From the NCBI GenBank assembly GCA_030390025.1, contig CM059432.1:23066001-23130000 (forward strand): DNA of 64,000 nt, given 5' to 3'. The stretch's first letter is position 1. Each line of letters begins with the position of its first letter. Under the pieces are notes generated by a model, which did no database searches, was not told the DNA's origin, and saw only the letters and a list, made by a program, of their open reading frames with translations. Made by a program: the position numbers and the translations under genes. This document shows positions 9,584 to 57,468 of the stretch, one piece after another. Source of the DNA: Squalus acanthias (taxonomy: Eukaryota).

Positions 9584-10002
9584 AACACACATGTGTAAAC
9601 TCAAATATAAAGGTGGCGGTCAATGTCTGTGAAACCATGCCCCAGCATGAGTGAAGGCCTTCAGGAGAGGAACATAGAAAAGGGCAGAATCAAACGTGAA
9701 ATTTTAAAAAAGCAAGAATTGCAGACTCGATCCTTTAAGTCTGGTCTGTTCTGTAACCATCAGCTGTTTCCAGATTCAATTAGTAGGTTGTGAGTTTGTC
9801 ACGGCATCAGCTGGTGTCTGGAAGATGGGATAAATTCGGGCTGTAAGGACCTAGAGTCACACCGAGCAGGGCTGCTTGATCAGATGTGAGATGTTGATAT
9901 TGTTGGTGATAGAATCACTGTGTCAGTGGCCGATACCAGCTTAAGCAGCGAGGCTTCTTTAAGGTTGGAGTGCCCAGTGATGACTTTCTTTGCATTATTC
10001 AG

Positions 10003-10278
10003 GTTTCCATTCGATTAGATGGTGAGAACAAAGCTGTGGAATACAACGCAGTCGGACTGAGGAAGGATGCCGTGAGGACTGTTTTCAGAAACCGAGAAGT
10101 CAGCGGCTTATTTGACCGCAATTGGCACAAGATGGCACTGAGCATTCAGTCGGACAGTGTCTCCCTCTACATCGACTGCAAACTGATCGAAACGCTGCCG
10201 ATGGAAGAACGGGAGAACATCAACATCCAAGGGAAAACAGTCATTGGCAAGCGCCTGTATGACAGTATCCCAATCGAT
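10003..10278 (+). CDS. COL22A1: COL22A1-like exon, TSPN/LamG domain part 2
   Basis: ttattcag|GTT...GAT|gtgagt; 92 codons VSIRLDGENKAVEYNAVG...WHKMALSIQ...GKRLYDSIPID, phase 0/0, in frame with the previous exon. Confidence 0.92.
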
Positions 10279-14914: not shown

Positions 14915-15211
14915 GGGGGAGAAATTCACTATTGTCCCGTTTGGGGCGCTAATTTTTAAACGTTTGGAAAGTTAGAGCCAGGCGCTAACGATTTCAAACG
15001 TTTGAAAAATTCACCGTTTGCGCTCCAAGAAGGAAGTGGAGCGCTAAATCAAGCGCTGCACTTGCTTCTTGGAGCGTAATCGGCAGCAGGCGAGGCGGAA
15101 ACTTCAGCAGCGCTGCACACTGGGCCGTGCAGCGCTGCCGCGTTCAAAGGCTCCTTCCCTCCCTTAAAGGGGGCGCTAACGGGAGGCGCAAAGGCACCCA
15201 ATTTCACCCCC
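14915..15211 (-). mobile_element. Short Harbinger MITE related to 31-767
   Basis: GGGGGAGAAATT...AATTTCACCCCC; interior similar to 56-280 joined directly to the opposite end; flanks ATA/TTA. Confidence 0.75.
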
Positions 15212-19267: not shown

Positions 19268-20159
19268 GGGGGAAAAATTTGTTTGCTTTGCGCCTCCCAT
19301 TAACACCCTAAGAGGGCGCTAATGGGGCGCAAAGCAACTAGCGCCCGGGCGCGGCATTGTTTGCGCCGCTCGTGAAATTCACCAGACATTTTGCGGCGGC
19401 GCTAAACACTACCGCCACGATCTCCTGCGGCCGCAGATCGTGATGTCAGTCGAGCATGCAATACCCCGGTAGCGCCCCGGACCGGATATTGAGTAGCGCC
19501 CCCTGCCTTACCGCCTGCCGCTAGTAACAACAGGTTGAGGGGAGCATTTTGCAGTCGGGAAGGGTCTGGGGGAGCGCTATTTAAAGGCGATCACTTCCTG
19601 CCTTTTTTTGTCGGCGACGTTTTTGCACCACGCATTCTGAGAGAGAGAGAGAGACTTCTGGAGAGATTCAATGCTGTGTGAAGGAGTTTTGGGTACTGAG
19701 CAGCACTTTGCAGGTTCATTTTGATTTGACCATCCTTGCATCGATTTAGAAGAGACTATGGGGGCTGCACTCTGAGCTCTTTCCCTGGGGCTCTCCATTG
19801 TTCTTTCCAGCAGATTTGATGTACAGGTCTCTCCAGGCCAAGACTCAAGGCTGCAATGAGCAGGGTGTGGATGGAGAGCAAGATCGACCCTCCCCTTTAA
19901 GAACTGTACGGCACCAGTGTGTCTGTGTTCCATTGCTGACTGACATCACATGAGCTTCGCCAGCGCTCTGAGGTAGCGCCTCACTCCTTGGCGTTAGCAC
20001 CTTAAGAGAGGTGTGTAGTGCCTGATTTAGCGCTCCAATCACCTCCAGGGGCGATAGAAGCCAAGTTTGCAGTCGGAGGCGATAATTAGCTCCAGGCACT
20101 AATCTTTGCGCCCGGCCGATAATTGCGCCCCAAACGGGGCGATACCGAATTTCTCCCCC
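19268..20159 (+). mobile_element. Internally deleted Harbinger derivative (892 bp)
   Basis: TIRs GGGGGAAAAATT/AATTTCTCCCCC; TSD TAG; both ends colinear with 32620-33145 and about 36395-36782. Confidence 0.88.
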
Positions 20160-21830: not shown

Positions 21831-21884
21831 GGTGAACCAGGCCAAGTGGGAGCTGGTGGTCTCAAAGGAGAAAAAGGGGAACCA
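21831..21884 (+). CDS. COL22A1: Collagen triple-helix exon (54 nt)
   Basis: ttgctggcag|GGT...CCA|gtaagt; GEPGQVGAGGLKGEKGEP. Confidence 0.9.
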
Positions 21885-22188: not shown

Positions 22189-22578
22189 ACAAATGCGAGA
22201 AGTCGCACAACACCAGGTTATAGTCCAACAGCTTTATTTGAAATCACAAGCTTTCGGAGCGCTGCTCCTTCGTCAGGTGAAGTGAAGAGATACATATCGG
22301 CACAGCATATATAGTCAGAGAACACTGTTAGATGATTACAGTTAATCTTTCCAACTGCCCTTTATCACACCTCGGGCAGTTGGAAAGATTAACTGTAATC
22401 ATCTGGCAGTGTTCTCTGACTATATATGCTGTGCTGATATGTATCTCTTCACTTCACCTGACGAAGGAGCAGCGCTCCGAAAGCTTGTGATTTCAAATAA
22501 AGCTGTTGGACTATAACCTGGTGTTGTGCGACTTCTCACATTTGTCCACCCCAGTCCAACACCGGCATCTCCACATCA
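22189..22578. mobile_element. Penelope-like terminal repeat (family P2) forming a 172-bp-arm hairpin
   Basis: Arms 22189-22360 and 22374-22545 (4 mismatches), 13-nt loop, tail ccaccccagtccaacaccggcatctccacatca; candidate TSD TACATAA. Confidence 0.8.
22453..22490 (+). ncRNA. Minimal type-I hammerhead ribozyme motif (mirror copy 22244-22281 on -)
   Basis: UCAC-CUGACGA-A-GGAGC(AGC)GCUCC-GAAA-GC-UU-GUGA: core, stem II, stem I UCAC/GUGA and palindromic AAGCUU stem III. Confidence 0.7.
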
Positions 22579-23971: not shown

Positions 23972-24494
23972 GTAAGACAAATTGTTTGCTAGGCTGGGAA
24001 ATATTCACTATCAAATTGTCGCTGGCAGTCCATCTGTGTATCACTGCACCTGTGTATCAGAAAGAAGTAGCAGAGAGAAAGTACGAGGAAGATTTGGATA
24101 TCAATCTCCATATCAATACAAAAGAAGGCCCTTTTTTAACTGATAAACAAGAAATGTCAGTTTAAAAACAATCCCAATTTTCTCCCTTCCTTTCCTAAAG
24201 GTGCTGACGAATGATAGGGTATAATTCCAGAGATGTTGGCAGACCTACACTGCCCTCCACCATTGGCGGCCGTGCCTTCAGCTGCCAAGGCCCTCAGCTC
24301 TGGAATTCTCTCTTTGAACCTCTCCGCCTCTCTACCTCTCTCTCCTTCTTTAAGATGCTCCTTAAAACCTACCTCTTTGAGCAAACTTTTGGTCACCTGT
24401 CCTAATATCTCCTTATGTGTCAAATTTTGTTTTATAACGCTCCTGTGAAGCGCCTTGGAACATTTTACTATGTTAAAGGCGCTATATAAATTCA

Positions 24495-24638
24495 GCTCTC
24501 GGAGTGCTGCTCCTTCACCTGACGAAGGAGCAGCGCTCCGAAAGCTTGTGATTTCAAATAAAGCTGTTGGACTATAACCTGGTGTTGTGCGACTTCTCGC
24601 ATTTGTCCACCCCAGTCCAACACCGGCATCTCCACATC
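24495..24638 (+). mobile_element. Penelope P2 terminal fragment inserted in an L2 tail
   Basis: Matches 22453-22578, with a short inverted remnant at 24494-24516; 11-bp TSD ATATAAATTCA (24484-94, 24639-49). Confidence 0.85.
24514..24551 (+). ncRNA. Minimal hammerhead ribozyme motif
   Basis: Identical to 22453-22490. Confidence 0.7.
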
Positions 24639-25604
24639 ATATAAATTCAAGTTGTTGTTGTCAAACCCAGCTGGCACAGACTGAACTGAACCAAACTAAC
24701 AGACTGTACAGAGGGTAGCGGGCTAAGTGTTTGGGGCACTCCTCACAGGACACATTGTCCTAAACTCAGCTCAGTACCATTTCTAAACCACTTCCTGGGC
24801 TCAGTCTTAATAAAGGAGAATTTTCATAGAATGATAGAAATTACAGCACAGCAGGAGGCCATTCAGCCCCCCGATGCCAGTGCTGGCTCTCTATCCTGTA
24901 ACCCCATTCACGCAAGATCCTTCTACATTCCTCCTTTTCAAATATTTATCCCATTCCCTTTTAAATTATTTTCTGATTTCTGCCTCAATAGCCACTTATG
25001 GAGCACAATGCCCACAGTTCAAAAAACATCAATGTAGTGATGCTGTCAACCACAGTGCTGAGGCATAAATTTGAAAAATAATTTGATGTGTTTTGGATTT
25101 GGTGCCAAAGCCTATGCAATCAATGGCCCTTGCACGCCCAGAACCATGCTGAGTACCAGGGATGAACAGGCATCCCTTGCATCCAGTGTTGCTATGGCAC
25201 AAATGACAGGAAATCCGTCAGATGATGTGTTTCCCTTATTTAGATATTATTACACCACTTCCATGCATATCTGAGCAGACATACTGGACATCCTCTGTCA
25301 ATTTCTAACAGATGCAAAACTGTCTTTTTTTTTAAAATAAGAAAAGCCAAGCATTTTCATAGAATCATAGAGCACAGAAGAAGGCCATTCAGCCCATCAT
25401 GCCCGTGCCGGCTCTTTGAAAGAGCTATCCTATTAGTCCCACTCCTCTGCTCTTTCCCCACAGCCCTGCAAAATTTCCCTTTTCAAGTGTATACTGTATA
25501 TCCAATTCCATTTTGAAAGTTACTATTGAATTTGCTTCCACCATCCTTTCAGGCAGTGAATTCCAAATCATAATTCGCGGCGTAAAACAATTTCTCCTCA
25601 ACTC

Positions 25605-25738
25605 CAAAAGCAAAATACTGAGGGTGCTGGAAATCTGAAATAAAAACAGAAAATGCTGGAAATACTCAGCAGGTCAGGCAGCATCTGTAGATAGAGAAAC
25701 AGAGTTAACGTTTCAGGTCGATGACCCTTCGTCAGAAG
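25605..25738 (-). mobile_element. Penelope P1 terminal fragment
   Basis: Near-identical to 6249-6378; contains a hammerhead core at 25703-25738. Confidence 0.8.
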
Positions 25739-27394
25739 ATCGCCTGTCAATCCCACCAATTTGTGAGACTATCTTCCAAGAGTGCAACACTCTAAAGTCA
25801 GCACCTTGATTAATCAATCATCTAACACTGGAAAAACAAACCAGGAAAAGAACCAGGACTGCTGCTTCAGAAATGCAAAATATTGATAATGGGGCCAAGT
25901 ATTCCCATTATAGATACTAGGATAGTTTACATTAAGCTGAGAAGTAGAAATAAAATGTTGGGAAGCTGAAGGGGTGGTGTGGGGGGGTGGAGGTGGAGGG
26001 ATGCTAGTAGAAGATGACAGTAGGCTGTTACATTTAATCTTTTGGTCATTAATTGAAGATTTGAAGAGTCATTCCCTAATCTTCAGAATTTTACAGTTTC
26101 ATAAGGAGCCATTTATACATTTATGGTAATTGACACCTGGATCTCTAATAGCAATGCTGACTGAGTCATTCTGGCTGGCGTCACTTATAAGCTGTTTTTA
26201 ACATTGGAATGATTCTGGGCTGATATCTGATGCTCAGTCCAGTCTCAATACACTTGACATCTCTATGTTACTTCATAAAATTTATAAATAAATCCTTAAT
26301 AATCCTAATTCAATCTCGTCACATTAGTGCTGCTCTATTTGATGCTATGGCGCTATTTGAAGAAGAGCAGTGAGGTGACCAACATTCATCCTTCAACCAA
26401 AACCAGAATAGTGGGGTGTTCAGTTGATTTGCTGTTTGTGCGACCTTTCTGTGTACAAATTGGCTTCTATGTTTTCCTACATATAAACAGTGACTATAGT
26501 TCAAAAGTATTTCATTGGTTGTGAGGTGTTTCTATCTTGCAGAAGTGATAAGGTGCTATATAAATGCATGTTTCCTTAATGATAATTTATACTTTTTAAT
26601 TTTTGTTCTCCCTCACTTGCCACTGGCCTCACTCCATAGTTTACGTCATTTATCAATTGAGTGTTATATTGGCGATCTTGATTCCAGTTCTGCATATGCA
26701 GTTCTGAAGCCGGGCCTTAAAAGTGTGCACAGCTAGTACAGGTTGACTGTTCATCTCATTTCCCCTCCCAGCTATTGCTAAGGTATCTTGCTTCTGCTTG
26801 ATACCTCTCCATGGGATGCCAGCAGCCACCCTGGACCAGCTTGAACTGAATCAAAAGAGCCATTGTAAAAACAATCAGCAATGGTATATTGCCAGTAATC
26901 TATTTCTGTTAAATTTGCTTTCTTTATAAAGAAACTGCAATCATTATGTATGAAGCCAAGGCATACATGTTATATAAAAAACCTTGCAAAACATTTGAAT
27001 ACTCTGTATATGATGAATAGAGTACACATCAGAACCCAGTTTATTTACAGAAAGTAATTCAGTCGTGTTACAGGCAACAAGGCTCAATCATTTTTGACTG
27101 CTATGTAATGGTGCTGGTGTATAACAGGCGGCTGGCCTGATATTGTTCCTTTTACACTCCGCTGAATGTTAAAATTAACCCCACTGAGTCTAAGAGTAAA
27201 AGGATGGTTTCACTGTGCGCTACCTAACAGGCCTACAGTGGTCCAAAATGGAGCATGGACAGGTCTTATTGAACATTGAAGTTGCTGATAGTCACAAGTG
27301 GACTCAGCTTTCTTACGGGATCCAATCTTCTACCAATTTTTCCAGCTATATAACCGTGTCAGTAGATTGGATGTGATGAACAAACTGAAGCATA

Positions 27395-28357
27395 GGCCGG
27401 GATTTTAATTTCGAGGCGAGTTGGGAGCGGGGCTTGGGGGCTGCAATGTTGTCGGGAAACCCGGGAAAACGGGTTTCCCTCAGGCCCTGCCGAATTTAAC
27501 GGTAGGACCTGATTAGCATTTAGAATCTCTGTTTCCCACCCGCAGCCAGCCAGATTGAGAGGCTGGCTGGCTGTTGGGCAGGTAGGCCTGTGGCACCAGG
27601 CCGCAGAGAGGAGGGAGGGAGGGATCGGGGTGGTGCGGGGGGGGGGGGGGGGGGGGGGTCGGAGGCATGAGGGGGTTCGGAAGCTGGTGGGGGTGGTCGG
27701 AAGGCCGGAGGGTGGATTGGCGGCCGGAGGGGGGAGGTCAGAAGGCCGAAGTGGCATTCAGGGCTGGAGGGGGAGGTTGGAAGGCTAGAGGGGGTTCGAG
27801 GGCCAGGGGCTGATGGTCAGAAGGGTGGAGGGGAGATTAGAGGCCGGAGTGGGGGGTCGGGGGCCGGAGGGGGGACCAGGGGCTGGGGGCTGAGTATTGA
27901 AGGCCAGAGGGGGAATCGGAGATAGGAGGCCTCAGTGGGGGGGTGGGGGGGGGGGAAGGTCGGGGAAGATCAGAAGGGTCGGGCGGTTGTCCGATCGAGG
28001 GGGGTTGGCGAGGCAGGAATGTTTGATCCAGCAAGTAAGTGGAAAGGAACTTACCTCCTGGGAGCAGTTCTCGCCTCGCTTTAACTGGCAGTTTCCCAAG
28101 GCCTGGGGATTGAAAATGGTGGATCACCATGAGGCCTGCAGCCTCATTATAATATTTAAAGTGCCAACCTGCCTTCTGCGAGCGGGTTGGCATTCCGGCA
28201 CCACCCCACCCCCCCCCCCTCCCCCCCCACCCCATCCCGCTCCGTTAAAACTGGAAGTGCATGGGTTGCAGGTGGGTTGGAGTTGGTTCAGTTTTTTAAC
28301 TCTTTAACCTCCCACCCAACCCTAACCCAGCCATTTTTTGTGGTTAAAATTCCCCCC
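27395..28357 (+). mobile_element. GC-rich MITE family copy
   Basis: GGCCGGGATTTTAA...TTAAAATTCCCCCC; colinear with 45262-46367; G-rich low-complexity core. Confidence 0.75.
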
Positions 28358-29460
28358 ATTGACTTCAGTTTTACTAGGGCTCCTTGATGCCACACTCGGT
28401 CAAATGCTGCCTTGATGTCAAGGGCAGTCACTCTCACCTCACCTCTGGAATTCAGCTCCTTAGTAGCTTGGGCGGGGAATTTTAATTAATCGGTTCTGAC
28501 GTAACTTGGAATAGTCATGTATCTTTTCATTCTTGTCGCACAATTATGACATCACTCTGCTAGTAAAGCCAGCCAATTACCTGTGTATGGTGTATAGGAG
28601 CTGTCAGTGTCATAATAAGGCCGATGGAAAATGGTCCAATCTCTGTAAATAGTTTAAAATACTTGAGCAAAACTTTTGTCTTAAGTCCTACTGCTAGGAT
28701 GATAAAACTCGAGTTTTGCAACAAATTGACAACCAATCACTTGTAACGTGGATTATTTGTCATCCTGGAACACCATCAGCAACCAATAAAATATCTGATG
28801 CAGCATATTAAATAACATGGCAGACAGACAATGTTAAACTGAGCTGTGGGATAGTGTGCTGATCAGCAAAAAAAGACATAGAGGTAATTGCAGATAAATC
28901 TATGAAACTGTGCCTCGCTGTAATAAAATAGCAAATAAGGTATTGAGGCCGATTTGCTTTCCGCCTTTGCCCCAGTCAGGAAGCGTGCATTTTGAAGCTA
29001 CTGGCCTGGAGTGCAACAGAGCGTGGCTGAATTTCTGGGTTCAGCTTATTTACATGGTCTGGGCAGGAGAATGACTCTGGGAATGAGAGGGAATCCCAGA
29101 TGGGGGAGGAAACTTTTAGCAAATGCCCACCAACCCAAAGGCTTTCTGTCTACTGTCAAAAATAGCAGTCAGATAGCGTCCAGCCCTAAAGCTCATCCTT
29201 GTTGATCATTAACAACATTCTAATTTACCTTTCTGAAGGTGCTAGCTGGTTGCTGGCAGTCCCTTTTTGGATCCTCCAATTGGAGGGGGCTGACTGCAAC
29301 GTCTAAAACTCACATTCTCAGTTGTCTTTTTGGGCACCTGCCAAATTGAAACCCAGGAAAATTATGGGGGAAGTGTTTTATGTCACTCGTGTGTAATTAA
29401 CATATAAGTTTCAGGTGAGAGCTTCAGCCCACATTAATGATACACCAGGAATGCAAGTCA

Positions 29461-30734
29461 TAGGATCATAGAATCATAGAATGGTTACAGCACAGAAGGA
29501 GGCCATTCAGCCCGTCGAGCCCGTGCTGGCTCTCTGCAAGAGCACTTCAGCTAGTCCCACTCCCCCGCCCTTTCCCTGTAGCTCTGCAATTTTTTTTCCT
29601 TCAGGTACTTATCCAATTCCCTTTTGAAAACCACGATTGAATCTGCCTCCACCACACTTTCAGGCAGTGCATTCCAGGCCCAAACCACTCGCTGCATAAA
29701 AAAGTTTTTCCTCATGTCGCCTTTGGTTCTTCTGCCAATTACATTAAATCTGTGTCCTCTAGTTCTCGACCCTTCTGCCAATGGGAACAGTTTCTCTCTA
29801 CCTACTCTGTCTAGACCCCTCATGATTTTAAACACCTCTATCAAATCTCCTCTCAATCTTCTTTGCTCTAAGAAGAACAACCCCAGCTTCTCCAGTCTAT
29901 CCACGTAACTGAAGTTCCTCATCCCTGGAACCATTCTGGTAAATCTTTTCTGCACCCTCTCTAAGGCCTTCACATCCTTCCTAAAGTGCGGTGCCCAGAA
30001 TTGGACACAATACTCCAGTTGAGGCCGAACCAGTGTTTTATAAAGGTTCATCATAACTTCCTTGCTTTTGTACTCTATTTATGAAGCCCAGGATCCCATA
30101 TGCTTTTTTAACCGCTTTCTCAACCTGCCCTGCCACCTTCAATGATTTGTGCACATATACCCCCAGGTATCTCTGTTCCTGCACCCTCTTTAGAATTTTA
30201 CCCTTTAGTTTATATTGCCTTTCCTTGTAATTCCAACCAAAATGTATCACTTTGCACTTTTCTGCATTAATTTCCTCTACCACTTATCTGCCCATTCCAC
30301 CAGCCTGTCAATGTCCTCTTGAAGTCTATCACTATCCTCCTCACTGTTCACTATACTTCCAAGTTTTGTGTCATCTGCAGATTTTGAAATTGTGCCCTGT
30401 ACTCCCAAGTCCAAGTCATTAATATATATCTAAAAAAAGCAGTGGTCCGAGTACCAACCCCTGGGGAACACCACTGTATACCTTCCTCCAGTCCGAAAAA
30501 CAATTGTTCACCACTGCTCTCTGTTTCCTGTCACTTAGCCAATTTTCGTACCTATGCTACCACTGTCCCTTTTATTCCATGGGCTTCAAATTTGCTGGCA
30601 AGACTATTATGTGGCACTTTATCAAACGTCTTTTGGAAGTCCTTGTTCACCACAACAACCGCATTGCCCTCTTCAACCCTCTCTGTTACCTCATCAAAAA
30701 ATTCAATCACTTTAGTTAAACACAATTTGCCTTT
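29461..30734 (-). mobile_element. CR1 LINE 3' fragment (RT C-terminus and tail)
   Basis: FQKTFDKVPH; LYKTLVRPQLEYCVQFWAPHFRKD...RGHRF...WNALP; frameshifted; (ttctatga)n tail. Confidence 0.92.
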
Positions 30735-31610
30735 CAAACACAAACAGGGCAGATCTGGCGTAATGGATCTCCATTGCAACTTCCTCTGCCCAATATTTCA
30801 AAATATTTAGGCAGAGAAGAAATGTCTCCATCAGATTGTGTTAGCGGTGGACAGAATACAAATCTTAATTACATGCATAAATAGGGCTTCCGCCAAAGTT
30901 ACGCCGGCAGAGTGGCTGATGTCCTGAGGAAATTCCTGGCCAATGACCTTTTTCTATTCCCAAATATTTCCAGGTTCGGAACATTTTAGCATTTGAAACT
31001 ATAAGTTGCACTATTGCATCTACAGGGCAATTGACCATTGATGCATTTTCCAACAAGCAAAAGATGTGCTTCCAGGCTGACATGAGGAACATCTCTCTCA
31101 CACAATATTTAATGCTAAAACACCCAGAGCCATTCCAGGAGGTTGGGCAGAAATCATCTCATGTTTGAAATGAAGCTGATTCTGCCTTAGTCATAGAAGA
31201 TAACAGCTGTGCGCCAGGAACAAGTCACTGTTTTAATTTTTCTGCCCTGATTTTAAAAAACATTTAAAAAATGCTGCTGTAATATTCAGACTCAATTACA
31301 TTTTTACAGACACTACGTGGAGCTTTGAGGATTTATTTTTGACAATCAACAGACCTAACCAAAACAGGGTGTTTCCATGCTACATTTTTTAAAAGGACTA
31401 CATATTTTGACCACGGAGAGACACAATAATATGCAATTGCTGTCCAAATACACATAAACAAGCCTAAATAGACAGATAGGCATCTTAACTATAGAGCCTT
31501 TTGACCTTCGTTCCTCATTTTGAGGATTCTTTCAACTAATGGTCTTCTGTTTTCTTTCTTTAATTAAAAAAAAAATCAGTTGTTCTTTGGTGACAGCAAG
31601 TAAACACATT

Positions 31611-32340
31611 GGGCCGAAAATTGATCCCGGGACGCGAGAGTACGCACTGCGTACTCTCGCGTATTCCCACTCCAATTGCCGGTTTTCTGCATGCCCTGCG
31701 CATGCGCTGAAAACCGGCAATTGCTCTTCCGAAAAGGGGGCGGGGCCTGGCTGCATCGCGTGCGCGCTACAGGCTGCGCGCACGCTGTGCACTTCATGCT
31801 TTGGACGCGCAGGTAAGTACGGAAGATTTTGGAAATGTAAAAAGGAGGAGTAAGACCCGCTTTTAAGAAGGTAAGTAGTGAATTAAGTATTTTTTTGAAT
31901 TTTTTTTTACAGGTATATCTTTTTTATAGACTTTAAAGACAGGTAAGTTTATTTTTATAACTTTTTAAAAGATTTTAAATTTTTTCAAAAATTTAATTTT
32001 TTATTTAAAATGGTTAATTTAATTAACTATACTTATTTTATTAATGTGATAGGTTTTTTTTTAAATTTAATTGAGGTTTAGCTGTTATTTTGGGGGGGTG
32101 TAAGATTCATGGCTGTGAGACTTATGAATGGAAGATGGTGTGCTGCCATTGGCTCTAACTGAGTCACGTGATCCCACAGCTCGCACGAATTCACTACGCC
32201 GCTGGGATACGCAAGCCCAGCACAGCTGATGTCTGGAACATCAATTTCGTGCGAGCTGGATCAGAAAAAGCATAAGCGAGGTCAGACATCGCGGGGAAGG
32301 CTTACCCCCGCGGGAACAGAGCGAGATCAATTTCTGGGCC
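31611..32340. mobile_element. Harbinger-type MITE with AT-rich core
   Basis: TIRs GGGCCGAAAATTGATC / GATCAATTTCTGGGCC; TSD ATT (31608-10, 32341-43). Confidence 0.8.
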
Positions 32341-33131
32341 ATTACATTTATGATGTACAGCACAGGGTAAATTCACCAATCCCACACTCTCAGCAGGAAC
32401 ATCCGCTCAAAGGGAGCATGGATTGGAAGTAGGGCCGTAACACTATGAAAGCGATTCTCTGACTCACGCTCCCTTTCAGCGCAGCTCCCTGTCCTGTGTG
32501 TGGAATCGATGAATTAGTCTTCATATTAAATACAGTGCGATAGCAAGTGAGCTTTGTTGAGCAGCTTGCAGAACATCAGAAAATGAAATTTGGGATATTC
32601 GATTAATTTAAGACATGATGGGGGAAAAATTCAGTTGGTTGCGCCTCCCGTTAGCGCCTTAAGAGGGCGCTAATGGGGCGCAAAGCCGCTAGCGCCCGGG
32701 CGCAGCGATGTCTGCGCCGCTCGGGAACTTAACTAGACATTGTGCGGCGGCGCTAAACTTTACCGCCGCGACCACCTGCGCGCGCAGATTGTGACGTCAT
32801 TCCATGGTGCAACGCCCTTGTGGCGCCCCGGAGCGGAAATTGAGTGGCGCCCCCTGCCTTACCGCCTGGCGCATCCAACGACCGGAAGACTGGAACGCTA
32901 TCAATCGCTGTGGGGCTGGGGGGGGGCGCTATTTAAAGGGGGCCTCTTCCTGTCTTTTTCTGTGGTTAACATTTTTGCACCACTCGTTCTGAGAGAGAGA
33001 GAGAGATTCGGAGAGAGAGAAAGAGAGACTTCTGCATTGAGTCAACGCTTTGTGAGGTAGTTTTGCCTACTGATCCTAACTTCGCTGGTACTTTGGTTGC
33101 TGTCCTTCATAACTTTGCTTGCAAAGAGACT

Positions 33132-34292
33132 ATGGGGGCTGCACTGCTTGGGGGCGTCGTCCTGCTCCAGCTGAATCGGAGGACACAGAGACGCAGAGAG
33201 AGAGTGGCAATGATGGCCAGACGGAGGAGGGCCAACAGGCGTATGTACAGGAGAGCTTACCCTCCCAGGGTATATCGTGAACAGCTCTCCTACATTCATA
33301 TGTCTGAGGAGCTGTGTTTGCGAAGGCTGCGATTCAGCAAGGAGGTGGTCACTGAGCTCTGCCATCTGCTGCAGCCAGATCTGCAGCCTCAACTGAGGTC
33401 CAGGACGTCTCTGTCGGTGGCAGTGAAGGTAACAGTGGCTCTCAACTTCTATGCTACTGGCTCATTTCAAGCTGCTGCTGGGGACCTCGCCAATATCTCC
33501 CAGTTCGCGGTGTATTGCTGCATCCGGCAGGTCACAAATGCCCTCTTTAAAAGGAGACGAGAGTTCATCTCTTTCCCCATGACCCCAGACAAGCAGCGTG
33601 ACCGCGCTCTGGGCTTTGCGAGGATAGCGGGCTTCCCCATGGTGCAGGGCGCCATTGACTGCACGCATGTGGCTTTGCGTGCTCCACATGAGAATGCCGA
33701 GGAATTCCGGAACAGAAAGGGGTTCCATTCCTTGAATGTTCAGTTGGTCTGTGACCACAGACAGCTGATACTCGCTGTCAATGCCCACTATCCTGGCAGC
33801 TGCCACGATGCTTTCATCCTGCGCCAGACTACTGTGGCAGAACTTTTCGAGGCACCGCATCAGCCAGTTGGTTGGCTTCTCGGGGACAAGGGGTATCCAT
33901 TGAGCACCTGGCTGATGACACCGCTCCGTACGCCCAACACCCCTGCTGAGCTGCGGTACAACGAGAGCCATCAAGCTACCAGGAACATCATTGAGCGCAC
34001 AATCGGCGTGCTGAAGCAATGGTTCCGCTGTCTCGACCATTCTGGAGGAGCCCTGCAGTACTCGCCTGAGCGAGTATCCAACTTCGTAGTTGTGTGCTGC
34101 ATGTTGCATAACATGGCAATCGTCAGGACCCAGCCAATGCCACCAGGTCTTGGAGCACCACCAGAGGAGGAGGAGGAAGAGGAGGAAGAGGACGAGGAGG
34201 ATGATCATCAGCAACACCAAGGCGGGAGGGTGGCCCACAATGGTGAAACTGCAAGGGCCGTCCGTCAACGGCTGATAGCAAGCCGCTTCTAG
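33132..34292 (+). CDS. Harbinger DDE transposase (HARBI1-like, DDE_Tnp_4 type), 386 aa
   Basis: Uninterrupted ORF from ATG 33132; motifs GAIDCTH (D), FRNRKGFHSLNVQLVCD, YPGSCHD, WLLGDKGYPL (D), RNIIERTIGVLK (E), CCMLHN; acidic C-terminal tract. Confidence 0.93.
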   Translation: MGAALLGGVVLLQLNRRTQRRRERVAMMARRRRANRRMYRRAYPPRVYREQLSYIHMSEELCLRRLRFSKEVVTELCHLLQPDLQPQLRSRTSLSVAVKVTVALNFYATGSFQAAAGDLANISQFAVYCCIRQVTNALFKRRREFISFPMTPDKQRDRALGFARIAGFPMVQGAIDCTHVALRAPHENAEEFRNRKGFHSLNVQLVCDHRQLILAVNAHYPGSCHDAFILRQTTVAELFEAPHQPVGWLLGDKGYPLSTWLMTPLRTPNTPAELRYNESHQATRNIIERTIGVLKQWFRCLDHSGGALQYSPERVSNFVVVCCMLHNMAIVRTQPMPPGLGAPPEEEEEEEEEDEEDDHQQHQGGRVAHNGETARAVRQRLIASRF

Positions 34293-34421
34293 GGCCCCTG
34301 CTGTGAAAATGGCTTCTGCCATTGCTAACAACATCAATGAACCCAGCACGCAACCCCTAAGCCGGCCAAGGCACCAATGATTCCAAACACCAAACATGTA
34401 TATTTTGAATACAAAAACTTA

Positions 34422-34477
34422 TTTATTTTACAAACTCTGTGTGTGTCATTTCCTCATGACAAACTCATAGAAATAAA
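34422..34477. terminator. Opposed polyadenylation signals between the convergent Harbinger genes
   Basis: TTTATT at 34422-27 (AATAAA on -) and AATAAA at 34472-77 (+), between the two stop codons. Confidence 0.45.
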
Positions 34478-34604
34478 CACAAAAAAACAGTCATTAACAT
34501 AACTGGTTCTCACAACCTGGAGATAATGTCCAAAACACTAGACAAAAGTTGGACCACGAACCTCGGCCTTTAATAAAAAAATGACCAGCATTTTGTCACA
34601 CCTC

Positions 34605-36424
34605 CTACTTTTTGCCCTTCGAGGGTGATCTCCTTCCCTTGCGCACTTCCCCCCTTCTAACCCTACTGCTCCTCCGTAATGGGACCTCAGTGGCTGCAGC
34701 AAGGCTGGTGGAAGGCTGCTGATTGTCAGACCCTGACACTGCAGATGCCCCTGAAGGACGGCCTCGACCAGTTCTGGGCCTGGAGGGCCCGGCTGCAGAC
34801 TGCACCAACTCTGCATGGGCGGCAGCAGTCTGTCCTACAGGCGGTGGCAAGTGCAGTGGAGAAGTGACAGTGTTAGCAGCAGGAATGCTGTCATCGTGAG
34901 AGAGGACAGCAACTCCCTGCTCGCCCGACACACTGGCACTCCCACGGGGCAGCACTTCAGCATCCGGAGCAATCTGCTGGAGCACAGATTGCTGGCCTGC
35001 TGCGGCGCGGTGAGAGCCCCGGGGACATGTGAACGAACCATCGAGGTTGGCAGCAGTCAGTGCTCGCGTGGCCTCAATCTGAGTCTGCATGAGAGCAGTC
35101 AGAGATGGGATCACGGCAGTCAGTGACTGAATTGCAGCACTAAGCGTTAGTGTGGCATCCGCCTGTGCTACAGCGAAGTGCTCCACACTCCTTGCCAGTG
35201 ACTCAATGCATTCGGGCACCCTTCCCACTGCACCCATGAGCTCAGTGTGCATGCCCACCGCCTGGGTGTTCATTTCTGCGATCAGCCGCTCCTCCTCTGC
35301 GTCCATTGCAGTAGGAGTCGCTGGCATACTTTCCCTCTGGAGAGAAGGCCCCCGTTCTTCCCTACCCCCATGGCGTTGCTGCAGCCCGCTGGGTCCTGGA
35401 GCTTCACCCTCATCAGACCCTTCCCCCCTGCTCCCCTCCAGGGAAGGCATGTTCCCAGTGTGGGCATGGGCTTCCTCGGGAGAGGGTGGCACTGATGCTC
35501 CGGCTTCCTCTTCCTCCTCGGCTGCAGCTTCACTCCCACTGGCAGCTTCAGGGCCCGTCTCCTCAGCTGGTGAATCACCATCTGAAAGCAGGGAGGTACA
35601 AGAGTGGCTTTAGCGTGAGGACAGGGTGGCAGTAAGGGAGGAATAAGTGCAGCGAGTTAGCAAGTTGGATTGAAAGTGTCAAAGGCTGGTGTTGTGAGGG
35701 ACAAGTGGAAGGACAGAGGACAAAAAGGTGATGACCTTACCATTGCTGTCCAGAACGGGGTCGGCGTCTCCAGTGGCGACGGGACCGATCACCCGGCTTG
35801 CCACAATCCTGTGGACGCGCTCCTCAAGATCGCTGAGGGGTTGCAGCTGAGGCCGCCCTCCACCTGTCCGTTGCTGCTGTCTCCTATTATGCGCCAGCTT
35901 GGCCTGCAAGAAAAAGTACAGCATCTGAGTAAATATACAGCCATGGTCTTGCCTGATGTGCCTCCCATAGGTGAATAGCCCTTACTGTATACAGCCATGG
36001 TCTTGCCTGATGTGCCTCCCATAGGTGAATAGCCCTTACTGTATGCAAAGTGTGGAATGTGTGTGTGTGTTTCATGAAAGGGCCATAGGTGTTGGATGAG
36101 TGTTGTGCATTAGGGTTTTAAGACCCTCTGGCCATAGAGTGAGGTTGAGATGGAGGGATGGAGAGGTATTGAGAAAAAGCCACTCACCCTGACGACCCGA
36201 GTGAGGTCGTTGAACTTTTTGCGGCATTGAACATGGGTCCTGGGCACCATGCTCCTGGAGGAGACGCTCTGAGCCACCTCCCTCCACACTCTTCTATACT
36301 CGCGTGGCAAAGGCCTCCTGCCACTCTCAGGGAACAGTATACATCTTCTGCGCTCCACCGCGCCAACCAGAGCATCCAAGGCCCGCTCGGTGAAGCGCTG
36401 AGCTCGTTCTCTCACCCTCTCCAT
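34605..36424 (-). CDS. Harbinger Myb/SANT-like (MSANTD/NAIF1-type) partner protein, 3 exons 36188-36424, 35741-35903, 34605-35581; 458 aa
   Basis: Exon 1 MERVRERAQRFTERALDALV...W.EVA...RTHVQCRKKFNDL; GT-AG introns (GTGAGT..cttgcag, GTAAGG..ctttcag) join in frame (1,377 nt); exon 2 has RTGGG; basic C-terminus. Confidence 0.85.
35937..36044. repeat. Perfect 54-bp tandem duplication in intron 1 of the Myb-like gene
   Basis: acagccatggtc...cccttactgtat occurs twice, 35937-35990 and 35991-36044. Confidence 0.95.
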
Positions 36425-37241
36425 CCTTGGCAGCAAAATGGATTCACAGGTCTCTCCAGGCCGAGATTCAAGGCTGCAATGAGCAGGGTGTGGCTGGGGA
36501 GCAAGTTGGCCCCCCCGCTTTAAGAACTGGCCGGCGCCAGTGTGTCTGTGTTCCCTCGCTAACTGGCAGCACCTGCGCTGTGCTCGCGCGCTGAGTTAGC
36601 GCCTCACTGCTCGGCCTTTGCGCTCTAAGACAGGTGTGCAGCGCCTGATTTAGCGCTCCACTCACCTCCCGGGACGGTAAAAGTGAAGTTTCCAGTCAGT
36701 GGCGATAATTAGCGCCAGGCGCTAATATTTGCGTCCAGACGATATTTGCGCCCCAAATGGGGCGCGACCTAATTTTTCCCCCGATATGTGATGAATGTAG
36801 CATGCTTGAGAAGAACACATGACTTTGGGCCCATGGTTCCCAAAACTCTCCACCATTGGGGTTTTCCTTGCGTCACTTCTGTATCTGTTGTCAACTAATT
36901 GACAGAGATTGATTGCTATGATTTGTCAGCAACGTTATTATTGTTGTATCATGCAGCTACCAAGATGGTAGAAGGTGAACTAGATGGATCTTAGCCTTTT
37001 TTTGTCTCGCAATTCCTATATTCCTGTCTTCGAGGCTTGCTACATGATGTTCTGCCACAAACTTTTGAAGTAAGGCTTACGCTTAGAGGAAGAAACGTGA
37101 GCAGGATTTAGCTACTTTATAAAGATGGTTTTCATTTGTGTGGAATGGACTGTCAAGGAGGCAGTGAAGGCAGATAGTGTGAAAAGATTTAGGGGGAGAA
37201 TGGGATTGATATTGTAGGAAGTAGGCAATTGAAAGGTATTA

Positions 37242-37948
37242 GGGTTAAAAATTGGCTACCTTCGTCAGTGCCCCGAAAAAGTTAGCGCACCCATGGCCGA
37301 TTTTTCCAGGTAGCGCCCCGAGAGGGAGGAGGGGCGCTACTGGAAGCGCCCCGCGTCACTCTTGGGGCGCTATGAGCCAATATCGCGGTGCTACGTGCCG
37401 CGGTACTGCAGGCCTTCCTCCCCTTATTAAAGGGGAGGGGCCTGGCGCAGCGCATCCCGGCACCCAGCTGGGCCACCAGGAATCGGGAGTGCCGGCAAAC
37501 GAGCCCGGCACTCAAGAGGAGTGCCGGGCTCACGGAGAGCAGCCGGCACCCCGTGGGGCGGCTTCACGGGGGCCGTGACAGCAACAGGGGCAGGTGCTGG
37601 CAGGCGGCCAGCAACAAAAATGGCCGCCCGCCACCTCCCCTTTAACCAGCGCCGCCCCAGCCGCAGGTAGGCCCCTCTGACCCCGGCGGACATAGCGTCC
37701 GGCAGTAAGTCGGGAGTCGCCACCCAATATTACAGCCGGGGCGCGAGCGGGGCGCTGTGCACGGAGATAACATCATCGCCCGCAGCGCAGCACCTTGCCA
37801 CGCTAATGGTTAGCGCTGCCGCTAACCTCCCGCTGAATTTCGCGGGAAGGCATTAGCAGCGCCGCGCCCAGGCGCTAGTTGATTTGTGCCCCGTTAGCGC
37901 CCTCTTAGGGTGCTAACAGGAGGTGCAAATCAACCGAATTTAGCCCCC
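37242..37948 (-). mobile_element. Harbinger MITE (about 700-bp family) inserted in a decayed CR1
   Basis: Reverse complement of 47244-47945 and 48854-49420; ends GGGTTAAAAATT / AATTTAGCCCCC; flanks TTA/TGA. Confidence 0.82.
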
Positions 37949-38706
37949 TGAGTCTTTGGGGTTGGCAAGATGGACTGTATAATCTTTTCTGGTGCTGTAC
38001 TTTCTTATGTTCTTAAGGCTGTTTAAATCCATTCATGGCTTCACCCCTCCCTAACTCTGCAACCTGCTCCAGCCCTACCCTCCCCACCCTCTTGTGCTCC
38101 CTAACTTCATCCCATCAGTGGCGGCCCTGCCTTCAGTTATCTAGATCCCACACTCTGGAATTCCCTTCCTAAACTACGCTGCATCTCCACCTCCCTCTCC
38201 TCCTTTAAGGCGCTCCTTAAAATCCAACTCTTTGACCAAGTTTTTTGTCACCCCTCCTAATATCTCCTTTCTTTGGCTCAGCATTTAATTTAATTTTTGA
38301 TTACACCTGTATGAAGCAGCTCACAATGTTTTTTTCTATGTTAGAAGGGCTAACTAAATCAGAGTGTCTCTTGACACCACTGTGTCAGCCAATGAGCAGG
38401 AGGTGTGGTGGGACATGCAGCAAACAGTCTATTTTACAGCAAACAACGTTTATTTACTCAGCAAACAGCAAAGCAGACAAAGTCTATTTACAGAGTCTTT
38501 TTATAAAAAAGAGCCTCTACGAACTACAGCAAACATAACTCAGCAACTTCTCCCAACAAAAGCAGGGTGATTTCCCCAGCAAAATGCAATGAGTGGAGGA
38601 TAGTTACAGAATGCAAGTTATGTACCTAAATCAATCCCAGTCACTTACAGGCATGATTGACGGGTGAATTAACCAATCATCTCCATCCTGGCCAGGAATA
38701 GTGGTC

Positions 38707-45261: not shown

Positions 45262-46367
45262 GGCCGGAATTTTAATTTGGAGACGGGTAGGGAGTGGGGT
45301 GGGGGCTGGAAGACAGTTGTCTCTCAGGCCCGTCCAAATTTAACGGCAGGGCCTGATTAGCATTTTGATTCTCTGTTTTCTGTCTGCTGGCTGGCTGTCA
45401 GGCGGATAGGCCTGTGGCACCAGGCCGCAGGGAGGAAGGAGGGAGGGATCGTGGGGGTGGTCAGAATGCCAGGGATCGTCAGCGAGGTCGGGAGCCAGAT
45501 TGTTGGAGGGGAGGTCAGGGGCCAGATCGTTGGAGGGGAGGTCAGGGGCCAGATTGTTGGAGGGGAGGTCAGGGGCCAGATTGTTGGAGGGGAGGTCAGG
45601 GGCCAGATTGTTGGAGGGGAGGTCAGGGGCCAGATTGTTGGAGGGGAGGTCAGGGGCCAGATTGTTGGAGGGGAGGTCAGGGGCCAGATTGTTGGAGGGG
45701 AGGTCAGGGGCCAGATTGTTGGAGGGGAGGTCAGGGGCCAGATTGTTGGAGGGGAGGTCAGGGGCCAGATTGTTGGAGGGGAGGTCAGGGGCCAGATTGT
45801 TGGAGGGGAGGTCAGGGGCCAGAGTGGTGAGGGGCAGTTGAGGTCCAGATTGTTGGAGGTGAGGTCAGGGGCCAGATCGTTGGAGACGAGGTTGGGGTCT
45901 GTACATCGTTGGAGGGGTGGTCGGGGGCTGGATATTGGAGGGGGGCTTCGGAGGCCAGGGGGTTCAAAGGCCAGAGGGGAGATCGGAAGGGTCGGGGTGG
46001 GTGGTCTGATCGCAGGGGATTGGTGAGGCAGGGACGCTGGATCCTGCAAGCAAGTGTAAAGGCACTTACATCCTGGTTCTGGCAGTCCTCACCTTCCTTT
46101 AATTGGCGGGTTTCCCGAGGCCCGGGAAACCCGGCCAGCCAGAGTTAACTTTAAAATGGGGCATCAAAATGAGGCACGCAGTCTCATTATAATATTTAAA
46201 ATGCCAAACCACCTCCTGGGAGCGGGTTGGCTGCCCGCCCTGTTCCACTTCTGTTAAAACCGGAAGTGGACGGTTTGGAGGCAAGTTGGGGTCTCGATTC
46301 AGATTTTTAACACTTGCACCTCCCACCCGACCCTAACCCACTGTTTTTTGGGGTTAAAATTCCCCCC
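45262..46367 (+). mobile_element. GC-rich MITE family copy containing a minisatellite
   Basis: GGCCGGAATTTTAA...TTAAAATTCCCCCC termini; no clear TSD. Confidence 0.75.
45495..45818. repeat. 27-bp G-rich minisatellite, 12 copies
   Basis: Unit ccagattgttggaggggaggtcagggg; one substitution, in copy 2. Confidence 0.95.
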
Positions 46368-47243: not shown

Positions 47244-47945
47244 GGGGGCAAAATTTGGTTGCTTTAGGGTGCTAACGGGGCACAAAGCAACTAGCGCCCA
47301 TGTGTGGCGCCGCTAACGCCTCCATGAAATTCAGCGGGAGGTTAGTGGCGGCGGTAACCATTAGCGCCCCGCGGCGCTGCACCTCCAACGATGACGTCAT
47401 CGCCGTGCGCAGAGCCCCGGCCGCAATCTTCGGTAGCGCCCCCTGACTTACTGCCGGACGCTATGTCCGACAGGGTCAGGGGGGCGTACGTGCAGCCGGG
47501 GCATGGATGATTAAAGGGGGGGGGGTGGTGCCAGCCGGCCATTTTTGTTGCTGGCCACCTGCCAGCACCTGCCTCCTTTGCCTTCACTGGCCTCCGATGC
47601 AGCCCCCCCCCCCCCCCACGGGGTGCCGGCCACGCTCCTCTTGAGTGCCGGGTTCTTTTGCCGGCACCCCGATCCCTGGTGGCCCAGCTGGGCCCCGGGT
47701 CGCGCTGCGCAAGGCCCATCCCCTTTAATAAGGGGAGGAAGGCCTGCAGTACCACGGTGCGAGGTGCCACCGCGCATGTCGCCGCGTGTGTCACTGCGGC
47801 ACATAGCGCCGCTGTATTCCCTGGTAGCTCCCCAAGAGGGAGGGGGAGTGCTTCCAGTAGCATCCTGACTCCCTCTTGGGGCTACCAGTGAATTTTGGGT
47901 GCAGGGGGCGCTAATTTTTTCGGGGCGCAACTGAATTTTTCCCCC
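47244..47945 (+). mobile_element. Harbinger MITE (about 700-bp family)
   Basis: GGGGGCAAAATT...AATTTTTCCCCC; flanks ATA/AAA. Confidence 0.82.
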
Positions 47946-50284: not shown

Positions 50285-50338
50285 GGTGATCCAGGTCTAA
50301 GAGGAGAGGTGGGACTACCAGGCCTGAAAGGTGTAAAG
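50285..50338 (+). CDS. COL22A1: Collagen triple-helix exon (54 nt)
   Basis: ttctggtttccag|GGT...AAG|gtaggc; GDPGLRGEVGLPGLKGVK. Confidence 0.85.
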
Positions 50339-56343: not shown

Positions 56344-57468
56344 TTGAGAGTTGTTGGAGATGCACTCATCCAGGCAAGTGGAGAGTATTCCATCACACTC
56401 CTGACTTATGCCTTGTAGATGGTGGAAAGGCTTTGGGGAGTCAGGAGGTGAGACACTCGCTGCAGAATACCTAGCCTCTGACCTGCTCTTGTTGCCACAG
56501 CATTTTTGTGGCTGGTCCAGTTAAGTTTCTGGTCAATGGTGACCCCCAGGATGTTGATAGTGGGGGATTCGGTGATGGTAATACCGTTGAATGTCAAGGG
56601 GAGGTGGTTAGACTCTTGCTTGTTGGAGATAGTCATTGCCTGACACTTCTGTGGCGCGAATGTTACCTGCCACTTATCAGCCCAAGCCTGAACATCGTCC
56701 AGGTCTTGTTGCATGCGGGCATGGACTGCTTCATTATCTGAGGAGTTGTGAATGGCGCTGAACACTGTGCAGTCATCAGCGAACATCCCCATTTCTGACC
56801 TTATGTTGGAGGGAAGGTCATTGATGAAGCAGCTGAAGATGGTTGGGCCTAGAACACTACCCTGAGGAATTCCTGCAGCGATGTCCTGTGGCTGTGATGA
56901 TTGACCTTCAACCACCACAACCATCTTCCTTTGTGCTAGGTATGACTCCAGCCAGTGGAGCATTTTCCCCCTGATTCCCATTGACTTCAGTTTTACTGGG
57001 GCTCCTTGATGCCACACTCGGTCAAATGCTGTCTTGATGTCAAGGGCAGTCACTCTCACCTCACCTCTGGAATTCAGTTCCTTTGTCCATGTTTGGACCA
57101 AGGCTGTAATGAGGTCGGGAGCCAAGTGGTCTTGGCGGAACCCAAACTGGGTATCAGTGAGCAGATTATTGGTGAGTAATTGCCGCTTGATAGCACTGTC
57201 GATGACACCTTCCATCACTTTGCTGATGATTGAGAGTAGACTGATGGGGCGGTAATTGGCCGGGTTGGATTTGTCCTGCTTTTTGTGGACAGGACATACC
57301 TGGGCAGTTTTCCACATTGTCGGATAAATGCCAGTGTTGTAGCTGTACTGGAACAGCTTGGCTAGAGGCGCGGCTAGTTCTGGAGCACATGTCTTCAGCA
57401 CGATAGCCGGGATGTTGTCGGGACCCATAGCCTTTGCTGTATCCAGTGCGCTCAGCCGTTTCTTGATA
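56344..57468 (-). mobile_element. CR1-group LINE (family B) reverse-transcriptase fragment
   Basis: KAMGPDNIP, NYRPISLLS, QFGFR, AFDRVWH, PQGSVLGP, MFADD in a ~350-codon stop-free stretch; no endonuclease or 3' end. Confidence 0.92.

Follow-up and report, generated by a model that had tools for sequence, protein, structure and literature searches.

The 64,000-nucleotide stretch of Squalus acanthias DNA that we analysed (the window) contains, at 32620..36782, a PIF/Harbinger-type transposon with two convergent genes (Table 1). An earlier note on this DNA had described the same anatomy, and our analysis confirmed it: perfect 12-bp terminal inverted repeats (TIRs), a GAT target-site duplication (TSD), a 386-residue DDE transposase carrying D176, D252 and E288, and a three-exon Myb/SANT-like gene. 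The location in a collagen intron was also borne out, with an exon resembling collagen IX NC4 (E=3e-13) and Gly-X-Y exons on either side, none being found between 21884 and 50285. These exons, as read from the sequence, place the element in the predicted intron of a FACIT-type collagen gene; an Atlas look-up of the NC4-like exon returned laminin-G-like clusters only.

Table 1 Features of the element, its host gene and a related non-autonomous element (positions in the window)
Feature	Position	Strand	Remarks
Host exon, TSPN/laminin-G domain like collagen IX NC4	10000..10278	+	E=3e-13; start of exon approximate
892-bp non-autonomous element, TSD TAG	19268..20159	+	75% (left) and 81% (right) identical to the element
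Nearest detected upstream collagen exon, 54 bp, Gly-X-Y	21831..21884	+	
Left TSD copy, GAT	32617..32619	.	
Left TIR, 12 bp, perfect	32620..32631	+	Inverted-repeat match; depth step
Left subterminal region	32632..32931	+	CpG-rich; five copies of a 7-bp motif
DDE transposase ORF, 386 aa	33132..34292	+	D176, D252, E288; W297; Y128
Myb-like exon 3, low-complexity C-terminal part	34605..35581	-	Stop 34605-34607
Myb-like intron 2, 159 bp, GT-AG	35582..35740	-	Spliced joint 35581-35741 in contigs
Myb-like exon 2	35741..35903	-	
Myb-like intron 1, 284 bp, GT-AG	35904..36187	-	
Myb-like exon 1 with Myb/SANT domain (PF13873)	36188..36424	-	
Right subterminal region	36425..36770	-	Three 7-bp motif copies
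Right TIR	36771..36782	-	Inverted-repeat match
Right TSD copy, GAT	36783..36785	.	
Nearest detected downstream collagen exon, Gly-X-Y	50285..50338	+	Donor at 50332 or 50338

Delimitation of the element

The inverted repeat is perfect over 12 bp at both ends, with 14 of 16 positions matching over a longer span. TIRs and TSD alone are weak evidence, because 10 shuffled windows gave five cases of a 12-bp inverted pair lying within 10 kb and bordered by equal 3-bp flanks, and we rejected them as sufficient proof of the ends on the basis of this control. The boundaries are fixed by a step in contig depth at both ends (61–72 in the bin left of the element versus more than 1.6 million in the bin holding the left end), together with the homology of both ends to MITEs in the window. 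The CpG observed/expected ratio is 1.1 in the left subterminal region versus 0.3 in the flanks. The 7-bp motif repeated in this region also occurs in the window's MITEs, and the subterminal copies are candidate binding sites for the Myb-like protein, whose promoter side would lie in the right subterminal region.

The bases bordering the GAT of the element are T and A. All six two-ended elements of the window have flanks that match the 12 flanking bases of the published 15-bp Harbinger3_DR target at 6–9 positions, the element itself matching at 6, where the background chance is ~9% for at least 6 matches and ~0.6% for at least 8. Across the same six elements, a TTA flank occurred in one only, on one side only, and a CWG TSD in none.

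The 892-bp non-autonomous element is an internal deletion derivative of a sister family, because it is only 75–81% identical to the full element; transversions make up 99 of its 174 mismatches. The window's MITEs descend from sister families and not from the full-length copy, and the proposal in the earlier note that this copy drives them does not hold.

The transposase and the Myb/SANT-like protein

The transposase ORF is free of stops and matches Pfam PF13359 (E=5e-39), and its predicted structure (pLDDT 87) has strands and helices in the expected order. A search at E<=1e-20 gave 406 homologues, of which the top 77 belong without exception to sharks and rays; the best homologue, from a sawshark, is 72% identical, and the top homologues are all named 'putative nuclease HARBI1'. 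With nothing above 72% identity, proteins of the element's own family were not found in the collection searched, and no near-identical family sequence that would show residue 297 was found in the 50% representative set (best match 57%) or among the shorter proteins (best 62%). In the protein searches, no non-shark protein exceeded about 60% identity, and a metagenome scan gave 622 pattern matches, none confirmed. A PDB sequence search returned nothing meaningful (5 weak matches) and Foldseek with the predicted model no match at E<=0.001, its weak rows being DDE transposases and integrases; no solved Harbinger transposase structure was found in either search.

Two motifs in the transposase, NAHYPG (H219) and KQWFRCL (W297, codon TGG), had been flagged beforehand as possible CpG-decay changes that might impair this copy, and both are present. 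H219 was rejected as a damaging change, with H in 15 of 181 homologues and K, Q and others common too. The second concern was substantiated, as R occupies position 297 in 104 of 145 homologues and the residues most often seen in its place (C 11, H 8, W 3, Q 3) represent CpG-decay products. In the predicted structure, residue 297 is the last of a helix (271–297) that carries E288, and we consider that R297W in this catalytic-glutamate helix probably cripples the transposase of the element. The triad is intact in 71 of the 142 homologues covering all three residues; among the 67 triad-intact homologues with a residue at 297, 20 lack R and one has W, many of these being decayed copies themselves. 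W at 297 would be tolerated if it were the family majority. At position 128, the element has Y and the family majority H.

The Myb-like gene is predicted to be spliced at GT-AG introns into a 458-residue frame with a single terminal stop. Its first exon matches PF13873 (E=3e-10) and, when searched among longer proteins, gave one match of 228 candidates; exons 1 and 2 align end to end with a sawshark protein (residues 8–82 and 83–116), and exon 3 has no Pfam match and no clear homologue. Intron 1 includes a 54-bp tandem duplication at 35934–36041.

Of the two Myb-like junctions predicted in the earlier note, one was seen in contigs of putative RNA. Two runs, X8 and X10 (whose RNA label is a guess), have contigs that lack intron 2, and neither DNA run (X1, X5) has them, a signal at the level of the family; in X8, the unspliced intron-2 contig has a depth of 408.8 versus 210.8 for the spliced joint. 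The spliced joint of intron 1 is not among the 15 of 82 contig joints listed, deep RNA contigs cover this intron unspliced, and junction 1 is predicted entirely from homology.

An abundant family and a probably recent insertion

Across the gene region, contig depths sum to 2.6e5–1.1e6 versus 15–26 for single-copy flank contigs. Read most conservatively, this implies about 300–600 copies, and uncorrected 24,000–38,000, where summed contig depth does not equal copy number. With at least hundreds of copies, the single-copy domesticated gene named beforehand as the alternative is disfavoured; the depth and the retained TIRs and TSD support an autonomous-type, multi-copy PIF/Harbinger element that is not domesticated. 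Of the 24 runs listed, 20 contain 0.45–0.77 of the element's words; these 20 span 9 studies and 5 labelled organisms. Runs of the four other labelled organisms hold 0.45–0.55, equivalent to about 1–2% divergence from the element, and four same-study runs of four further organisms hold next to no words, where a zero share is no proof of absence.

At 15 of the 35 element positions listed (40 of 300 difference rows), at least 98% of the X1 depth reads another base; the element carries at least 15 near-private differences. A single-copy X1 contig (record 1) matches 32370–32616 without difference and then continues into 30 unaligned letters. This contig departs from the window at the very position expected of an empty site, from which we infer that at least one other sequenced individual is likely to lack the insertion; the empty-site joint is not among the 15 of 82 contig joints listed. 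The element probably entered this site after the split from another individual that has been sequenced. The missing window alleles at 33147 and 35341 in X1 were rejected as a sign that X1 lacks the copy, because contigs drop rare variants and diverged haplotypes would give the same result. The dominant, deepest RNA contigs of the transposase region carry damaging variants, either G110C or a 2-bp deletion. By computation, open frames are expected in 8–84% of such copies.

Relation to known Harbinger elements

The element has the broad attributes of Myb-bearing PHIS members of PIF/Harbinger: a DDE triad, an independent Myb/SANT ORF, short TIRs with a 3-bp TSD, and many copies. Its GAT departs from the 5'-TWA-3' TSD of the strict PIF/Harbinger group (Han et al. 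2015), where one copy cannot define a family consensus. It shares with NuwaI and NuwaII, compared by excerpts of their description (PMC4482050), a transposase without another Pfam domain, a Myb/SANT second ORF, TIRs that start GG(G) and fall in the 12–61 bp range, and a length near 4.2–4.7 kb, but GAT fits neither CWG nor C|TNA|G. On the corresponding portions of Han et al. 2015, the TIR (12–61 bp, starting GGG) and Myb/SANT ORF are those of NuwaI and the 5'-CWG-3' TSD is not, the NuwaII target C|TNA|G is absent, and Pangu, with TSD ANT and no Myb domain, does not fit an element that has GAT and a Myb domain.

Zebrafish Harbinger3_DR, whose reconstructed proteins transposed in human cells according to excerpts of PMC2836001, PMC3016246 and PMC9710019, likewise combines a DDE transposase and a Myb-like gene with short TIRs and a 3-bp TSD. 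It differs in its TSD (CWG versus GAT), and in the shark both frames are open in a natural copy, as known from sequence alone. For the rice and zebrafish elements, the same sources (PMC2836001; PMC9710019), in the parts used here, report that both proteins are required, that the Myb protein binds the ends and the transposase, and that excision is precise. Harbinger-Snek of sea kraits is described, in a partial account (PMC8437027), as a large expansion with many intronic insertions, 269 intact two-gene copies in one species, non-autonomous derivatives and RNA across coding regions, with horizontal transfer argued from named genomes. By this description, it resembles the shark family in its expansion, intronic insertion, intact two-gene copies, non-autonomous derivatives and RNA. 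The rarity implied by the earlier note was thus overstated, while its remark that the biochemically studied vertebrate element had to be reconstructed stands (PMC2836001, in part).

The shark and ray 'putative nuclease HARBI1' proteins belong to the same transposase clade, and many are truncated or without a catalytic residue. Coelacanth Harbingers were reportedly found to be abundant, recently accumulated and expressed (attributed to Smith et al. 2012). Harbingers of the coelacanth and newt, different lineages, are likewise described in parts of PMC5741667 as abundant, recent and expressed in slow-evolving or large genomes.

Discussion

Our results are best explained, with good likelihood, if the element is a full-length member of a shark Myb-bearing PIF/Harbinger family that is abundant and of low divergence: an ordinary recent copy, probably damaged. 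It would have entered the collagen intron by cut-and-paste insertion at a palindromic target, with a 3-bp duplication. As in the wider family, a spliced Myb-like protein would bind the subterminal motifs and bring the DDE transposase to the ends, and excision would usually be precise. Neutral decay since insertion would have added missense changes, both frames having been kept open by ordinary luck; the ends look intact, so the element could still be moved by the proteins of other copies.

An overlapping account, which differs only by denying any recent movement, is that the family is long dead, having expanded in an ancestor shared by the five labelled organisms, its youth being an appearance caused by slow shark evolution and its RNA host read-through. 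This is possible, although the less likely account. Majority alleles are the same in organisms A and B, the rare alleles 33068 G and 33459 T prevail in the RNA contigs from either organism, which would suit transcription of a single old insertion common to the two, and both the excess of unspliced intron 2 in X8 and the low shark mutation rate (7e-10 per base per generation in the epaulette shark; PMC10587355) agree with it. However, correct Myb splicing in both organisms speaks against it, and the probable empty site needs movement, or unsorted polymorphism, after the haplotype split.

That the element itself is a functional autonomous transposon of a family transposing in living sharks appears improbable. 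Both frames are open, the triad is intact where half of the comparable homologues have lost it, the ends are CpG-rich, splicing of Myb intron 2 occurs in the family and another individual probably has an empty site. Nevertheless, R297W, the near-private differences and the damaging variants in the deepest transposase-region RNA contigs count against it; moreover, at the mutation rate above, 0.2% divergence corresponds to ~3 million generations, as long as polymorphism can last at Ne ~710,000. Recent horizontal transfer between shark species is more doubtful still: the runs of four other organisms at ~1–2% divergence beside four further organisms with next to none would suit it, but the same pattern arises between close relatives that evolve slowly, organism names are coded, a zero share does not prove absence and non-shark proteins stop at about 60% identity. 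Finally, a co-domesticated HARBI1/NAIF1-like gene pair under host selection is scarcely credible, even though the top homologues carry the HARBI1 name and several shark and ray homologues resemble orthologous domesticated genes, since, set against the single copy, synteny and TIR/TSD loss that mark domestication in excerpts of PMC9710019, this element keeps its TIRs and TSD, has hundreds or more near-identical copies, is intronic and is probably missing elsewhere.

More speculatively, and against the odds, the Harbinger family of this ordinary copy may still be jumping in living sharks, with a working protein pair among its hundreds to thousands of near-identical copies, insertions (this one included) that segregate between individuals, and flank-based targeting with a free 3-bp duplication, which would set it apart from every PHIS group defined by TSD. 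Vertebrate Harbingers that are intact and expressed have been published from sea kraits (PMC8437027, in part). If a working natural vertebrate pair exists here, it would provide an unreconstructed Harbinger for biochemistry and mechanism, and a tool with extended target preference; the element at 32620..36782 is a poor candidate for such a pair.

A 2022 survey that detected no Harbingers in the elephant shark proposed that they had been lost secondarily and called for other cartilaginous fishes to be checked (PMC9179366), and in the grey reef shark genome Tourist/Harbinger are the commonest DNA transposons (PMC12498223). Searches of the open-access literature gave no detailed description of such a shark family. 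The family described here shows that a large Harbinger expansion of low divergence, with complete two-gene copies, exists in at least one lineage of sharks, and many of the shark proteins annotated as 'putative nuclease HARBI1' probably represent copies of transposons.

The element and its host gene

All the features claimed in the earlier note are present: the terminal inverted repeats (TIRs), the target-site duplication (TSD), the transposase with its catalytic triad, the spliced Myb-like gene and the surrounding collagen intron (table). In 10 shuffled windows, two inverted 12-bp stretches bordered by identical 3-bp flanks turned up 5 times by chance, so that the TIR alone is insufficient to define the ends, which were instead established by a step in contig depth together with homology to the MITEs of the window. 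From its coding sequence, the host gene is a FACIT-type collagen, presumably most similar to COL22A1; no collagen exons were detected in the window between its two Gly-X-Y regions.

Features of the window around the Harbinger element
Feature	Position	Strand	Details
Harbinger element	32620–36782		4,163 bp; perfect 12-bp inverted repeat; GAT on each side
DDE transposase ORF	33132–34292	plus	386 aa; PF13359, E=5e-39; D176/D252/E288
Convergent Myb-like gene	exons 36424–36188, 35903–35741, 35581–34605	minus	GT-AG splicing gives 458 aa; PF13873 in exon 1
Host-gene exon matching collagen IX NC4		plus	E=3e-13
Gly-X-Y exons of host gene	21831–21884 and from 50285	plus	
Harbinger-type two-ended element	31–767		varied 3-bp duplication, palindromic flank motif in common
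Harbinger-type two-ended element	14915–15211		varied 3-bp duplication, palindromic flank motif in common
Harbinger-type two-ended element (892-bp)	19268–20159		varied 3-bp duplication, palindromic flank motif in common
Harbinger-type two-ended element	31611–32340		varied 3-bp duplication, palindromic flank motif in common
Harbinger-type two-ended element	47244–47945		varied 3-bp duplication, palindromic flank motif in common
Exact 54-bp tandem duplication	35934–36041		within Myb intron 1, near the acceptor
Near-perfect 172-bp inverted repeat, 13-nt spacer	22189–22545		apparently a young fold-back repeat in its own right; relatives at 24513, 38707, 63293
Reverse-transcriptase-like open frames	56406–57620 and 29551–30078		presumably LINE fragments
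GC-rich tandem arrays	2384–3026 and 45403–45924		48-bp and 27-bp units, within related GG-ended repeats

Copy number and homologues

The Harbinger stretch is present in 20 of the 24 listed sequencing runs, from 9 studies, with a share of its words of 0.47–0.77 in organism A and 0.45–0.55 in organisms B–E. Contig-level comparison covered four of the 24 runs, two of DNA (X1, X5) and two of putative RNA (X8, X10). Across the gene region, contig depths summed to 2.6e5–1.1e6 in X1 and X5 alike; contigs of the single-copy flank had depths of 14.7 and 18.2 in X1 and of 26.3 in X5. Since summed depth is not a true copy number, the resulting estimates, ~600 (X1) and ~320 (X5, 55% read) from the lowest bin divided by 31 for k-mer overlap, and 38,000 (X1) and 24,000 (X5) from uncorrected median depth, serve as orders of magnitude. 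On that scale, the family holds at least hundreds of copies at 90% identity or more, which excludes the domesticated, single-copy alternative that the earlier note had set against a mobile element. One X5 DNA contig (depth 47) joins the right end of the element (36782) to a left end (32619) with 10 letters between, which suggests that insertions lie next to each other, head to tail, at some other place in the genome.

Of 4,534 candidate proteins, 406 are homologues of the transposase at E≤1e-20, nearly all labelled 'putative nuclease HARBI1'. The best 77 come exclusively from sharks and rays, which makes a shark the most likely host. The protein searches found none of the element's own family, the closest match being 72% identical. 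Five shark and ray 'HARBI1' groups (P0004/P0005; P0006/P0013/P0016/P0018/P0020; P0011/P0012; P0024/P0025/P0063; P0043/P0044), whose members are closely similar across distant genera and often lack one catalytic residue, appear to be several distinct elasmobranch genes domesticated from transposases. A sawshark gene model, P0009, places a Myb domain and a DDE transposase within one 523-aa protein, either a true fusion or an annotation artefact.

State and age of the window copy

At 15 of the 35 element positions listed (of 300 difference rows), at least 98% of X1 depth carries a different base, and near-private change of the window copy amounts to at least 0.36%. Between it and the long RNA contigs there are 12 differences in 1,274 bases (X8) and 20 in 1,830 (X10), counts that omit four contigs of a second subfamily, ~92–94% identical. 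Among the rows listed are missense changes at two transposase residues, L6 (I in the family) and Y128 (H in the family), together with three more in Myb exon 3. Two motifs had been flagged as possible damage. The histidine of NAHYPG (H219) is common among homologues and gives no concern; the worry over KQWFRCL was justified, as residue 297, W here, is R in 104 of 145 homologues (31 of 33 within a 34-sequence alignment), and the residues next most frequent there are those that CpG decay produces. In the model, this residue closes the helix carrying E288. W297 is thus probably an R-to-W decay, as judged against homologues, the family's own codon not being among the difference rows listed.

Open frames require neither selection nor activity, because a neutral copy at 0.2–1% divergence has a probability of 0.08–0.84, depending on the indel rate assumed, of keeping both reading frames, the start codons and the splice sites intact. 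At the rate of 7e-10 per generation given for a different species, the epaulette shark (PMC10587355), such divergence equals 3–14 million generations, before faster CpG change.

A filled allele would pass through GAT into the TIR, and an empty site, its break being placed as far left as it can go, would exit at exactly 32616 and resume at 36783. X1 record 1 (277 letters, depth 14.7) is identical to 32370–32616 and then runs for 30 letters without continuation in the window, a break from which we consider it probable that the site is empty in X1; the empty-site joint is not among the rows listed, all of which have summed depth of at least 40. An empty site would show that the element arrived or left after the two haplotypes had diverged; in large, slowly evolving populations it would not demonstrate present-day activity. 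In the right flank, 4 bases of X1 and X5 also disagree with the window, which may therefore stem from a sister species of organism A or from a different population of it.

Splicing and RNA of the family

A joint at 35581–35741, skipping 159 bases with CT..AC ends (GT-AG on the minus strand), is exactly the predicted Myb intron 2; its depth is 210.8 in X8 (organism A) and 90.2 in X10 (organism B), it is absent in both DNA runs, and it constitutes family-level evidence in which the RNA nature of X8 and X10 is a guess. Of the two junctions predicted earlier, the second is thereby borne out for the family; no spliced intron 1 joint occurs among the best 15 of 82, and the first junction stands by homology, with one sawshark protein aligning exon 1 on residues 8–82 and exon 2 on 83–116. 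Deep putative-RNA contigs also span both introns unspliced.

The deepest transposase-region contigs of X8 and X10 bear DNA-rare alleles, including G110C, where 122 of 137 homologues carry G. All of the X10 depth at 33847 belongs to a contig that lacks 2 bp. The family's RNA may therefore be sourced from a few, partly defective copies, and these lesions speak against productive transposase expression. The DNA-rare alleles common to both organisms, 33068 G and 33459 T (giving G110C), perhaps reflect one shared transcribed insertion. The 2-bp deletion is also carried by one DNA contig at depth 5,071, versus 26 for single copy, which we read as an amplified frameshifted subfamily.

MITEs and target sites

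The proposal that the window copy drives the MITEs of the window is not supported by the divergence: the 892-bp element retains its two termini and the two start-codon regions at identities of 396/531 and 314/388 to the window element (99 transversions in 174 mismatches), and derives from a sister family, whose sequence shows up as loose contig ends in the runs compared. Because its left 12 bp equal the window element's TIR and a 7-bp subterminal motif is common to both, cross-mobilisation is possible.

Six two-ended elements, paired by eye from several families with one-ended elements left out, are flanked by ACT, ATA/TTA, TAG, ATT, GAT and ATA/AAA, and all six lie in an A-N-N-Y / TSD / R-N-N-T context found at 1.7% of background positions. 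Their flanks match the zebrafish Harbinger3_DR target (PMC3016246) at 6–9 of 12 bases. Many additional single Harbinger-type ends are spread over the window.

Discussion

What the data show directly is how the element is built, its abundance, the splicing of intron 2 at the level of the family, and the target motif. Harbinger transposition needs both proteins, the Myb-like protein binding subterminal DNA and carrying the transposase into the nucleus, and excision is mostly precise (PMC2836001, PMC9710019). The window copy would have inserted by this two-protein cut-and-paste route and later decayed; it is probably a weak or dead transposase source and may still be moved in trans. It is a Myb-bearing PIF/Harbinger in the broad sense and would operate in the manner of zebrafish Harbinger3_DR. 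We assign it to no strict group, since GAT fits none of the duplications (TWA, CWG, TNA, ANT) defined in the available text of PMC4482050.

Intact, transcribed vertebrate Harbingers have already been published from sea kraits (PMC8437027), and expansions from newt (PMC5741667) and coelacanth (cited in PMC5381603). The accessible part of PMC9179366 reports no Harbingers in elephant shark and leaves the cartilaginous-fish question open; in a reef shark they are a common DNA transposon type (PMC12498223). We found no family-level description of a cartilaginous-fish Harbinger in searches of the open-access literature, and the portions available of PMC9392472 and a 2026 nematode preprint do not change our assessment.

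The window element is real and complete, an ordinary member of a large Harbinger family in a shark, and the family holds more interest than this one copy. We think it unlikely that the family is naturally active; were such activity shown, it would merit greater interest.
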